From an uncultured Methanosarcinales archaeon (GTDB taxonomy: Archaea; Nanobdellota; Nanobdellia; Woesearchaeales; GW2011-AR9), in contig CAYFMJ010000001.1 in the NCBI GenBank assembly GCA_964344235.1, positions 160,001-224,000 of the forward strand: a stretch of 64,000 bases of DNA. The letters run 5' to 3'. The first letter of the stretch is position 1, and each line of letters begins with the position of its first letter. Both the position numbers and the translations under genes were made by a program. Shown in pieces: positions 1,810-35,010 of this stretch. The notes under the pieces are model-generated. The model was not told where the DNA came from. It searched no databases and was given only the letters and a program-made list of their open reading frames with translations.

Positions 1810-2557
1810 GAAGGGGAGTATCCTGTACTGGATTATGATTGCGGCGCTTATAGCGAGTGCTTTTTTGGTGGCAGTGGTCTTTAAGACAGACTTCACAGCG
1901 CAGCCGAAAGGTGTGTGGCAAGAAAGTTATTTAGGAGTAGTGCAGGAAACAGAGAAAGAGTTGTTATTGATGGACTCTGCAGTGTATGAAGTGAGTAGGG
2001 AAGCTGCTGGAGAAGTTATTGTAGATATTGGTGTTAATGGTTTAGGGTGTGGTGTCGTTGATGGCATTCCTGTGTTGAAATTCTCCGGTTGTTTAGAGAA
2101 TATTGATGAGAAGTTTGTTGATGTATTTAGTACGAAGGTTTTGGGGTATTCAGAAATACTTATTGATGGAAATGATGTTGTAGGAATTAGCGAGGAGAAG
2201 AAGTTCATTGGCTCAGCATTGGAAACAATCCCAACGGAAGAAAGTGGTCTGGGTGCACCGGATTATGATTTCTTTTTAACGAAGCCGTTTTACGTTAGCT
2301 ATAAATATCAACCGCATTTTAGAATTGCGTTGGATGAACGGATTGTTGAACTAGAGAGTGTAGTGAAGACTGCAGATGATTTAGTGTTTTTCTGCCATAA
2401 GGAAGAGAAATTACGGGCATGCCTGGATGATTTGAAGCCAGAAGAGTGGCGATATGGGCCGTGCCATGCGCCAGATTATGGTGATGCGGGCAGAGAAGTG
2501 GCGTTCTGTGTTGGGTTAGGAGATGAAGATTTCTCATTTGCAGTGGATTTTTCGTGA
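1799..2557 (+). CDS. Class III signal peptide (prepilin-like) secreted protein, Cys-containing
   Basis: Start re-set to ATG 1799/1802; MMNKKG|SILYWIMIAALIASAFLVAVVF. Confidence 0.65.
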   Translation: MMNKKGSILYWIMIAALIASAFLVAVVFKTDFTAQPKGVWQESYLGVVQETEKELLLMDSAVYEVSREAAGEVIVDIGVNGLGCGVVDGIPVLKFSGCLENIDEKFVDVFSTKVLGYSEILIDGNDVVGISEEKKFIGSALETIPTEESGLGAPDYDFFLTKPFYVSYKYQPHFRIALDERIVELESVVKTADDLVFFCHKEEKLRACLDDLKPEEWRYGPCHAPDYGDAGREVAFCVGLGDEDFSFAVDFS

Positions 2558-2683
2558 ATTAATAGCCTACTTCAGATACCATAATCCTACACTTCGTATA
2601 GGAACATGGTATCTTGCGCCTGGCCATGCCATCACTATCTTCGACATTGATGACAATGATGGCACAGACGGCTATTAATTCAC
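2554..2683. ncRNA. Candidate structured RNA, three-way junction, identity unknown
   Basis: 14-bp perfect terminal inverted repeat GTGAATTAATAGCC/GGCTATTAATTCAC enclosing two 8-bp arms AGATACCA/TGGTATCT and TGCCATCA/TGATGGCA. Confidence 0.55.
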
Positions 2684-2741: not shown

Positions 2742-3734
2742 ATGTTTAAGATTCCTTTTGCTGATATTAAAGAGAAGATTGTTGCTAGTGGTAAACTCGG
2801 CAGGGAAGAGTTTGAGAATAAGGTCAAAGCGAAGATTAGCGAACTTTCTGGTTTAATCAGTGAAGAGGGAGCAGCCCACATTATTGCTAATGAATTGGGA
2901 GTGGAGTTAGTGCCGCAGAATGGTAATAAGTTAAAGATTAAGGAAGTCTATGCGGGTATGAAAAATATTTCTACACTGGGGAAAGTTGTGAGGAAGTTTG
3001 ATGTGCGAGAATTTGCGAAAGGAGATAGCACCGGAAAAGTGTGTTCTATTGTTCTTGGCGATGAAACGGGAACGATGCGAGTGGTGTTCTGGAATGATCA
3101 AGTTGATTTATTAAAAGAGGTTAAAGAGGATGATGTGTTGCAGGTTGTTAATGCGTATGTGAGGGATAATCGAGGCACTGCAGAAATCCATTTAGGGGAT
3201 AAAGGGGATATTGTCGTGAATCCGGAAGGAGAAACGGTGAATGTGGTCAGGAGTACGTTGACTGCAGCGCGTAAGAGTATTAAAGAGTTAGCAGGAGGGG
3301 AGCAGGGAGTTGAGTTGCTGGGAACAGTCGTTCAGGTCTTTGATCCTCGTTTCTGGAATGTTTGCCCTCGGTGTAATCGAAAAGTTATGCCGGAAGGAGA
3401 AGTGTACAAGTGTAATGATCATGGGGAAGTTACGCCAGGGTTTTCGTATGTGATGAATGTAGTGTTAGATGATAGCAGTGGCACAATCCGTGGTGTGTTT
3501 TGGAAGAACCAAACACTTACGTTGTTAGGGAAAAGCGATGATGATTTAGTTGCGTATAAGGATAACCCTGCATCGTTTGAAGATGTGAAGACTGATCTGT
3601 TAGGGGAGCAGTTTAAGTTAACGGGAAGAGTGCAGAAGAATCAGATGTTTGATCGGTTAGAATTTGTCGCGCAAGTGGTAGAGAAAGCGGATCCAGCGGC
3701 AGAGATTAGTCGGTTGGAAAGTAATTCTGGATAG
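2742..3734 (+). CDS. rpa: Replication protein A (OB-fold ssDNA-binding protein with Zn finger)
   Basis: OB motifs (LGDETGTMRVVFW, LDDSSGTIRGVFW) and CPRC...CNDH Zn finger. Confidence 0.9.
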   Translation: MFKIPFADIKEKIVASGKLGREEFENKVKAKISELSGLISEEGAAHIIANELGVELVPQNGNKLKIKEVYAGMKNISTLGKVVRKFDVREFAKGDSTGKVCSIVLGDETGTMRVVFWNDQVDLLKEVKEDDVLQVVNAYVRDNRGTAEIHLGDKGDIVVNPEGETVNVVRSTLTAARKSIKELAGGEQGVELLGTVVQVFDPRFWNVCPRCNRKVMPEGEVYKCNDHGEVTPGFSYVMNVVLDDSSGTIRGVFWKNQTLTLLGKSDDDLVAYKDNPASFEDVKTDLLGEQFKLTGRVQKNQMFDRLEFVAQVVEKADPAAEISRLESNSG

Positions 3735-32208: not shown

Positions 32209-32268
32209 CCTATCTCCTCAGTACTGTATTGGGAAGAAGGAGTTTTTAATGTTTTTGTTCTTGTACCA

Positions 32269-32365
32269 GTAATATGTCTGCTTGCACGGCACGATTACGG
32301 CGACAACATCGAGTTGCTTAATTTTACGTCGCCGTGTGCCTCCATTGGCAAAGCTGACATATTAC
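32269..32365. ncRNA. Candidate structured RNA, long hairpin, identity unknown
   Basis: GTAATATGTC/GACATATTAC, GGCAC/GTGCC, ACGGCGAC/GTCGCCGT nested stems. Confidence 0.55.
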
Positions 32366-32371
32366 ATAGAA

Positions 32372-32845
32372 TTATAGATCTTCCTCAGCGGGTTTGCCAA
32401 CGAGAGAATTCCACGCATGATCGTAGAAGCGGTGAATGAATTTTTCAGAATTTAGAAGGTTATCAATTTTGATTTCAGATGTTGCGTGATCCATTTTAGT
32501 AATTAATGTCACGTGACGACGGAATTCTTCCCGTTTTTGATGCGGTGATTTGAGAATGGTTTTAAGGAATGTGTAGAATTTGAGATGTTTTTGTAGCTCT
32601 GCATCGTCTGGATAGAGTTGGGAAACTTTCGTTGCTCGTAGAGCAGGGCTCTTCGGGAGACTATCAATTTTGCCTTCTTCTCTTGCATGTTCCAGGTATG
32701 CTTCGATGATCATATCAAACGTGCTTACTAACCTGTTAAGAGCATTGAGAATTACATCAACAGTCCGAGTATACTTCAGACTTACATATATAATGTGTTC
32801 GAGGCGTTTGAGTTCCTCCCGTGCTTCAAGTAAGAATTCTTCCAT
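32372..32845 (-). CDS. Conserved hypothetical helical-bundle protein (possibly HEPN-like)
   Basis: EAREELKRLEHIIYVSLKYTRTVDVI...EEFRRHVTLI. Confidence 0.6.
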   Translation of the reverse strand: MEEFLLEAREELKRLEHIIYVSLKYTRTVDVILNALNRLVSTFDMIIEAYLEHAREEGKIDSLPKSPALRATKVSQLYPDDAELQKHLKFYTFLKTILKSPHQKREEFRRHVTLITKMDHATSEIKIDNLLNSEKFIHRFYDHAWNSLVGKPAEEDL

Positions 32846-34691: not shown

Positions 34692-35010
34692 GGTAGAGTG
34701 GCATAAGCCGCCTTTTGTCAGTCTCCGGTTGGAAAGACTGTGAGAGCATTCTACTAAGCGTGTTAGACACTTGCACCATCTGGGATTCGCCGTTTCATCG
34801 GTTCCCATGGAGACGTCAGCAGGTTAACTCGCATGCTTTGCAGCATACTTCGCCATTATACCAAAGGTTGCATCATTCCATTCCATGGGGCGTGTCGTTT
34901 CTGAGCCAGAGCCGTTCATTTCTGAACCCCTCAAAGAGGGCAGTAGGTTGATACTTAGTGGGCGGACTTTCCTCAGTCAGGTGACCGTAAGCTCTCTGCC
35001 ACCACTACCT
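34692..35010 (-). ncRNA. rnpB: RNase P RNA
   Basis: Minus strand has GAGGAAAGTCC (34974-34964) and ACAAAAGGCGGCTTA (34718-34704) P4 signatures; 5' GGTAGTGGTGGGCA pairs with 3' TGCCACTCTACC. Confidence 0.93.

Follow-up and report, generated by a model that had tools for sequence, protein, structure and literature searches.

What is the 130-nt palindromic element at positions 2554 to 2683 of a 64,000-nt stretch of archaeal DNA (contig CAYFMJ010000001.1, positions 160,001 to 224,000; here called the window), which was deposited as an uncultured Methanosarcinales archaeon and is placed by GTDB in the order Woesearchaeales? The original prediction described a three-way junction closed by a perfect 14-bp inverted repeat and offered three identities for it: a novel noncoding RNA (ncRNA), a highly diverged signal recognition particle (SRP) or 5S RNA, or an element resembling a miniature inverted-repeat transposable element (MITE). 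The architecture itself is borne out by the sequence, by a listing of inverted repeats, and by comparison with shuffled sequences. Positions 2554 to 2567 read GTGAATTAATAGCC, the exact reverse complement GGCTATTAATTCAC occupies 2670 to 2683 (14 nt, 100% inverted repeat), and two further inverted repeats lie between them (2574 to 2592 with 2596 to 2614, 19 nt, 84%; 2627 to 2642 with 2649 to 2664, 16 nt, 81%). Folding energies proposed as a check lie well beyond those of shuffles on both strands: as RNA, the plus strand reaches −50.0 kcal/mol (z = −7.85) and the minus strand, the better of the two, −68.7 kcal/mol (z = −11.61), with 0 of 200 shuffles equal in either case. With DNA parameters the values are −28.8 kcal/mol (plus) and −30.8 kcal/mol (minus), with z about −7.6 on both strands. 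All 47 modeled pairs are intact, and the only open reading frame (ORF) inside the element is a 51-aa chance frame. As set out below, the element is a copy of a small, noncoding, MITE-type foldback transposon family of Woesearchaeota (DPANN), its closing stem is the inner part of the family terminal inverted repeat, and we lean toward the explanation that it is an old copy whose selected fold acts as an RNA, that is, an RNA carried on a MITE.

The search of this genome (1.19 Mb, 37 contigs) combined BLAST, nhmmer, and a covariance model, R1, built from six copies. It returned seven dispersed and diverged copies, a count that favors the MITE-like reading: C1:162554 (the window copy), C1:230003, C1:266404, C1:375001, C3:106, C4:30584, and C10:11129. 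They are approximately 64 to 76% identical to one another, and each is nearer to copies of other genomes than to its own paralogues. The sequence of the closing stem differs in each copy yet stays complementary, and the strings common to the copies (minus strand) are CCGUCUGUG, CAUGRCCAGRYG, and GNRARUAGG.

Evidence of mobility comes from other genomes, where the element is likewise noncoding and intergenic and measures 105 to 165 nt. Near-identical copies occur within genomes G014, G015, and G065. In at least seven genomes, young copies bear terminal inverted repeats of 19 to 25 bp, whose tip is often near GGCTCTGT in several lineages, and are flanked by target duplications of 8 to 12 bp, mostly 9 bp. 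The G015 unit, with a 19-bp terminal inverted repeat (GGCTYWGTAGAAARAGTCC), lies between direct repeats of its targets (CTAACTTCA, CCAGAAAAA, TTTTTGCCA, GGTATAAAT, GCTGAATT, and AAACCYAAG); the duplications in G065 are TATTCTTAC, TATCAAAAC, AATGCTATA, and AGGGCTAAT, and that of copy L139, in a metagenome-assembled genome (MAG) labeled uncultured Methanosarcinales, is GCAAGAAT. Duplications beside inverted repeats are found in the same way in G092, G109, G164, and G176. Their length is not strictly fixed, because those of G176 and G164 measure 11 to 12 bp and a copy in CAXGTL01 (L075:4270-4540) is flanked by a direct repeat of approximately 20 bp (TTATATATAATATAAAATCA) instead of 9 bp. Copies of G002, G010, and G015 also lie between orthologues of genes that are adjacent in the present genome without an element; for example, a gap at approximately 32209 to 32395 of the window is empty, and the orthologous gap in the sister genus G002 carries a copy (L028:1501-1623). 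An exact alignment of empty sites with G002 was unsuccessful, the intergenic DNA being too diverged at the genus level. Given the terminal inverted repeats and target duplications of its young copies, the family is a MITE-type transposon, spread by staggered-cut insertion catalyzed in trans. The MITE-like reading of the original prediction is thus supported by the seven copies, by a patchy multicopy distribution, and by the inverted repeats and 9-bp duplications of young copies elsewhere.

The window copy itself appears older. As originally reported, it has no target-site duplication; five of the six other copies in this genome likewise lack one, and none of the seven has a clean one. Copies c2, c3, c5, and c6 retain imperfect 18- to 20-bp repeats with tip-like strings, and in copies c1 and c4 the repeat breaks off sharply at 14 bp and does not continue. 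With neither a duplication nor a repeat tip left, we infer that the window copy is an old insertion whose fold has stayed perfect; in the copies of this genome, 89 to 100% of the modeled pairs are intact. Stems decaying as fast as duplications would leave most duplications visible, and therefore either selection has presumably maintained the fold ever since the element inserted or later deletions trimmed the flanks.

The family appears confined to one order. Model R1 found it in 8 of 61 close relatives (1 to 13 copies each) and in 26 of 151 genomes sampled evenly over the order (1 to 23 copies each; 25 of 150 when the unpublished genome G167, with a single weak match, is set aside), and 125 of the 151 had no match. 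Every positive genome of a phylum-wide sample, 13 in all, falls within the Woesearchaeales. When 185,579 species genomes were scanned for the exact pattern and the matches were scored with R1, 56 copies were confirmed, all in MAGs labeled Woesearchaeota, Nanoarchaeota, Nanobdellati, "Euryarchaeota SM23-78," or "uncultured Methanosarcinales"; bacterial loci that matched the pattern alone served as a negative control, none of them scoring with R1, and the single pattern match on a viral contig failed R1. The label "uncultured Methanosarcinales" is probably a loose one. MAGs deposited under that name (CAZJZJ01, CAYJVI01, CAZOXR01, and others) carry many copies of an element that is otherwise Woesearchaeota specific, and their labels look doubtful. 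Across more than 20 families of the order the core of the element is conserved, while flanks and repeat tips diverge.

What, then, is being conserved? The parts of the fold in the window copy, assigned from the inverted repeats and the predicted fold in the fold-competent orientation, are as follows, in 5' to 3' order of the minus strand.

2670 to 2683, minus strand: 5' arm of the closing stem P1, which is the right terminal inverted repeat, GTGAATTAATAGCC.
2623 to 2669, minus strand: hairpin P2, with a conserved lower stem (GUC-U-GUGCC/GGCAU-GGC) that includes near-invariant G-U pairs.
2652 to 2660, 2643 to 2651, 2640 to 2642, and 2631 to 2639, minus strand: upper part of P2, consisting in turn of arm a (ATCATTGTC), alternative arm a' (ATCAATGTC), a GAA triloop, and arm b (GATAGTGAT).
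2615 to 2622, minus strand: junction segment, made up of CAG (2620 to 2622), GC (2618 to 2619, the 5' half of a 2-bp helix), and GCA (2615 to 2617, the 5' half of a 3x3 loop).
2574 to 2614, minus strand: hairpin P3, built of an outer stem (AGAUACCAU/AUGGUAUCU), the conserved wobble motif GUU/AUU, an inner stem (CCUAUAC/GUGUAGG), and a GAA triloop.
2568 to 2573, minus strand: 3' junction strand GAAGUA, part of the conserved GNRARUAGG motif, in which GAA (2571 to 2573) is the 3' half of the 3x3 loop, GU (2569 to 2570) is the 3' half of the 2-bp helix and pairs with GC 2618 to 2619, and A2568 is unpaired.
2554 to 2567, minus strand: 3' arm of P1, the left terminal inverted repeat, which holds the plus-strand TGA stop (2555 to 2557) of the upstream ORF.

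This structure is supported by covariation. A structure-blind de novo alignment of six full copies (MAFFT followed by RNAalifold) recovered the three-way junction, with compensatory double changes in 22 of 47 pairs. In 54 distinct sequences from other genomes, none of which had been used to build the model, 93.3% of the cells form pairs, compared to 33 to 41% when partners are slid by one to three columns; double changes occur in 37 of 47 pairs, and the covariation score is 0.437, a value reached by none of 500 shuffles and set against at most 0.077 in the slid controls. Compensatory changes extend to 10 of 11 pairs of P1, an almost purely Watson-Crick stem across the family, and to 15 of 17 pairs of P3. 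The short helix between the two conserved junction motifs also covaries (C-G in 33, U-A in 18, a G-U-type pair in 1, and unpaired in 1 of the 53 sequences with letters there): CAGACG accompanies AGUAGG and CAGAUG accompanies AAUAGG, giving the family motif CAGRYG. The 3x3 loop under P3 follows the pattern G-N-A over G-R-A, and both hairpins usually end in a C-GNA-G triloop.

The fold is also strand specific. Among 14 representatives read in the window minus-strand sense, G-U pairs outnumber A-C pairs 87 to 8 (counts somewhat inflated by the model fitting considered below), and four G-U positions are nearly invariant across the order; the wobble pairs of the fold exist on the window minus strand only. 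When 86 distinct copies are oriented in this way, the minus-sense strand forms the more stable fold in 82 of them under RNA parameters (mean difference, −8.6 kcal/mol) and in 81 under DNA parameters (mean, −2.8 kcal/mol). P2 adds a further peculiarity in that arms a and a' stand in tandem and are both complementary to b; the pairing of a' with b covers at least 7 of 9 positions in 39 of 56 distinct sequences, compared to 3.3% of shuffles.

These observations bear on whether the element is anything more than inert palindromic DNA, that is, a decaying MITE with no single-strand function whose arms are kept complementary by template switching at quasi-palindromes. The element is self-complementary over its whole length, its closing stem is nearly free of wobbles, and template switching could in principle account for the way in which a, a', and b vary together. 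However, arm-to-arm correction would erase wobbles and produce no strand bias, which is the opposite of the G-U excess and the four near-invariant wobble positions just described; moreover, the unpaired motifs CAGRYG and GNRARUAGG are conserved with a covarying helix between them, and the core has held across the families of the order while its surroundings changed. We consider an inert palindrome highly improbable.

The paired arms of P2 invite a more speculative account. The unit that replicates and is selected could be the folded single strand itself, with a two-state junction, read by its shape by an unknown archaeal enzyme or acting as a small regulatory or catalytic RNA that tiny genomes such as these retain once the transposon features have decayed. 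The two states would arise from two 5' arms competing for one 3' arm and from two competing pairings of CCGUCUG. We also considered the pairing CCGUCUG/CAGAYGG as the structure of the junction; it fits the sequences and fails to explain why the Y of the motif covaries with the R of RUAGG, and we kept it only as a possible second state. This account of the unit and its two states is one that we regard as doubtful.

P3, by comparison with the junction, behaves as a replaceable arm, of which some subfamilies have a short version and G015 a version with insertions. In G014 (L029:1440-1731) and in CAYJVI01 (the flanks of L072, L090, and L092), a complete second element lies inverted exactly at the P3 tip of an outer element. 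This composite of approximately 290 bp is itself multicopy, with about seven near-identical copies, and arose in two unrelated lineages.

We then turn to the genomic setting, in which the original prediction had seen a possible divergently transcribed RNA. The window copy is intergenic. On its left, the 273-aa ORF 1736-2557, which had no Pfam match, ends within the left arm, and it seems that the insertion supplied or replaced the original end of this ORF. On its right, the gene at 2742 to 3734 encodes an RPA-type protein with an oligonucleotide-binding (OB) fold (Pfam tRNA_anti-codon OB fold and Rep_fac-A_C), and the right arm ends 59 nt before the rpa ATG (2742). A TATA-like box had been noted about 30 nt outside the element, and one is indeed found there.

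2709 to 2717, no strand assigned: TATA-like box CTTATAAAC, read from the sequence, approximately 25 nt upstream of the rpa ATG and 26 to 34 nt outside the element.

This box is probably the TATA box of the rpa promoter, lying outside the mobile unit, and may in principle drive transcription in both directions. A TATA-like box lies 15 to 28 nt upstream of the minus-sense 5' end in five of the seven copies of this genome; the boxes beside the copies belong to neighboring genes.

Could the window copy nevertheless be a dedicated host small-RNA gene, divergent from the rpa promoter region and one of seven structured paralogues, with the MITE-like copies elsewhere being secondary captures? The strong covariation, including RNA-like motifs such as the conserved G-U pairs and the 3x3 loop of G-A type, would suit such a gene, as would the recurrent TATA-like boxes and folds that are intact despite decayed transposon hallmarks. 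The neighborhoods of 100 copies, classified by their adjacent genes, are also partly in keeping with it, since 52 of 69 classifiable copies have a divergent gene on their 5' side. Divergent genes flank 26 copies on both sides, and convergent genes flank only 2. Copies typically end approximately 45 to 75 nt from the next gene start, on either side. Promoter proximity is not orientation specific, because copies are equally near (approximately 50 to 75 nt) to gene starts on their 3' side, and the copies thus abut promoters without a clear orientation rule. Such a gene is further contradicted by its locus: none of 39 metagenomic rpa loci (42 to 65% identity) carries the element, copies in sister genera sit at other loci, and there is no synteny between genera. 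The family was also not found in the large majority of the sampled genomes of the order, its young copies are plainly transposing, and the TATA boxes have owners of their own. A dedicated host gene is therefore an improbable explanation. For the predicted novel ncRNA, conservation next to rpa is not supported, and the predicted structure is, the fold being conserved by covariation and strand specific. Because such a fold is unexpected for a plain MITE, the element may yet have an RNA role.

Three further observations touch this setting. A tRNA gene (L053:373-443, G056) lies 58 nt from a copy that lacks P2. The four copies on contig C1 all point the same way, four being too few to interpret as a replication-strand bias, and the GC skew of C1 is positive (0.04 to 0.39) along all 413 kb irrespective of gene strand. 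The archaeal RNase P RNA (RF00373; 150.3 bits) was located at window positions 34692 to 35009 on the minus strand.

We thus return to the explanation that we favor, an RNA on a MITE. The window copy would have landed between the stop codon of ORF 1736-2557 and the rpa promoter, as a member of a family that inserts by a staggered cut with an enzyme acting in trans. The fold would be the selected feature, most likely acting as a minus-strand RNA, whose transcription may come from read-through or from a two-faced rpa TATA box; the RNA could work on behalf of the element or have been recruited by the host. Speaking for an RNA role are the gain in stability from wobble pairs, which is large only with RNA parameters (−8.6 versus −2.8 kcal/mol), the conserved G-U positions, the conserved loops of G-A type, and the retention of the fold by old copies.

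Several points weigh against this explanation. Among the 41 copies between codirectional genes, 26 are antisense and 15 are sense, a bias that is not significant, and this lack of orientation bias fits an RNA role poorly; neither a promoter inside the element nor a consistent T-run terminator was seen. C-GNA-G triloops are especially stable in DNA, which favors a fold in single-stranded DNA. The outermost bases of the repeats vary much between subfamilies while the interior is conserved, a pattern opposite to that of a textbook MITE. The model was used to fit and orient alignments A2 and A3, which somewhat inflates pairing and G-U counts, a bias that is limited by the de novo result from six copies and by the slid controls. 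Finally, no transposase with matching ends was found in the genomes searched, and no copy longer than approximately 350 bp was seen.

The search for a mobilizing enzyme took several routes, on the background that MAGs often lack assembled insertion sequences. The repeat tips of G015 pair only 140 to 330 bp apart, a search with 12-nt partners for a long, gene-carrying version returned only variants of 214 to 302 bp, and no transposase-like ORF lies downstream of the truncated copy L137. The DDE_Tnp_1 insertion sequence of G014 has ends unrelated to the element. IS256 and ISL3 transposases gave no matches; we had assumed ISL3 ends to start with GGCTCTT, and this lead was not borne out. A TnpB zinc-ribbon model gave subthreshold matches only. 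Y1_Tnp genes occur in two of the five carrier genomes searched (G014 and G015) and are missing from G000, G002, and G056. These Y1 HUH genes were rejected as the mobilizer, being ordinary IS200/IS605 copies with unrelated hairpins of their own (locus L209 of G014 was read in detail), and the other Y1_Tnp loci had no significant match with the element model. Beside the IS200/IS605 copy of L209 (positions 2020 to 2140; G014:C38) lies a different element of approximately 115 nt, with a long closing stem and two hairpins (−48 kcal/mol), which suggests that several unrelated families of three-way-junction foldback repeats exist in these genomes. A link to a Xer-type cassette array (C1:377.3 to 381.8 kb), 2 kb from copy c2, was also rejected, as the junctions of the array have other sequences and lack the core motifs.

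Much of this evidence can be read in another way, namely, that the family is the same mobile one and its strand-specific fold works as single-stranded DNA during mobilization, with no RNA needed. The junction would bring the ends together, and the enzyme would read shape instead of sequence, as happens with integron attC sites, IS200/IS605 ends, and the T-shaped hairpins of parvoviruses, which the architecture resembles. Neighboring genes oriented without significant bias and the missing internal promoter or terminator are what this account expects, and both hairpins end in the triloop of the classic stable DNA mini-hairpin. Closing stems that differ between copies, even in one genome, and are complementary nonetheless fit recognition by shape; the strand asymmetry persists with DNA parameters (81 of 86 copies), and the nested composites stay mobile with a whole element at the P3 tip. 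However, 9-bp duplications and inverted repeats are hallmarks of double-strand insertion of the DDE type, and HUH transposons are not known to make either; the only Y1 HUH genes found, in G014 and G015, are ordinary IS200/IS605, and three carrier genomes lack them. Wobble pairs add little in DNA (−2.8 versus −8.6 kcal/mol), yet four are nearly invariant, and selection for mobility alone does not explain why old, duplication-free copies keep the fold. We regard a role as single-stranded DNA as a serious possibility, though an unlikely one.

If the fold acts as RNA, as we favor, does it belong to a family already described? The original prediction had recognized no clear match to tRNA, 5S, SRP, or any riboswitch, and both Rfam and ARAGORN agree. 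At permissive thresholds, the best match of the window copy in Rfam 15 was mir-101, with 23.6 bits against a gathering score of 60; a search of 11 loci with diverse family members gave no match in Rfam 15, and ARAGORN found no tRNA in the window. A diverged SRP or 5S RNA is rejected, as the genome has a separate SRP RNA (C2:179688-179957, minus strand) and 5S rRNA (C1:276772-276884) and the element matches neither family. The SRP RNA gene scores 96.1 bits against a gathering score of 96.5, such that threshold-based annotation would miss it.

The three-way junction, together with GUC and GAA strings and one resembling CAGAUGA, also brought to mind the hammerhead ribozyme, whose core is CUGANGA ... 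GAAA ... UH at the junction of three stems. In the element the junction strings differ (CAGRYGNA and GNRARUAGG), the GUC is base-paired within P2, a base pair joins the Y of CAGRYG to the R of RUAGG, and no Rfam hammerhead model matched; this candidate was rejected. Box C/D, H/ACA, K-turn, bulge-helix-bulge intron, and tRNA-like readings were dismissed as well, because their defining strings or geometries are absent from the sequence. No description of the family was found in Rfam or in the searchable literature.

How does the family compare with known mobile elements? Prokaryotic MITEs with hairpin potential over their whole length include Correia/NEMIS of Neisseria, ERIC/IRU of enterobacteria, RUP and BOX of pneumococci, and SM of Sulfolobus. 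Like them, the element is small, noncoding, intergenic, multicopy, and patchy, with inverted repeats and duplications in young copies and no transposase of its own. It differs in that its interior is conserved instead of its ends; a covarying junction with unpaired motifs is maintained across an order, wobbles occur on one strand only, arms differ while remaining complementary, one hairpin holds two alternative 5' arms, and the search gave no parent insertion sequence. One Woesearchaeal genome is reported to rank among the archaeal genomes densest in MITEs (PMC11602168).

Similar comparisons can be drawn with other systems. Bacterial REP/REPIN-RAYT elements are likewise short, intergenic, selfish hairpins with compensated stems, and the element has a G-T-A-G-like string (GUAGG) near one end; unlike them, it has 9-bp duplications, long inverted repeats, a three-way junction instead of a simple hairpin, and, in the five carrier genomes searched, no RAYT gene recognized as flanked by its copies. 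Integron attC sites share a strand-specific fold, a similar size, and the preservation of shape over sequence along part of their length. However, attC sites have conserved R and L boxes at the ends and a variable center and form arrays next to an integrase gene, whereas in the element the ends vary and the center is conserved, and its copies are solitary, with target duplications, and outside cassette arrays. The inverted terminal repeats of the parvovirus adeno-associated virus resemble it in having a long closing stem capped by two small hairpins within a single strand; the element is chromosomal and dispersed, is not at the end of a linear genome, and has no linked Rep gene, and we claim no sequence similarity. 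The family is thus a MITE by behavior, with a conserved, strand-specific, and possibly two-state core unlike what MITEs are known for.

These results have consequences for how DPANN genomes are read. The genomes are very small, yet about one-sixth of the sampled Woesearchaeal genomes carry the element, in up to 23 copies. Annotators and RNA-discovery screens will continue to report its copies as new ncRNA genes. A single mobile family can be recognized in them with the covariance model and the set of motifs (CCGUCUGUG ... CAUGRCCAGRYG ... GNRARUAGG). If the folded strand itself were the unit, the family would represent a class of structure-defined mobile RNA or DNA elements in DPANN without a described counterpart. 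If the fold works as single-stranded DNA, it would point to a shape-reading mobilization system in archaea, and if it works as RNA, it would be an undescribed and widespread archaeal RNA that travels on a transposon.

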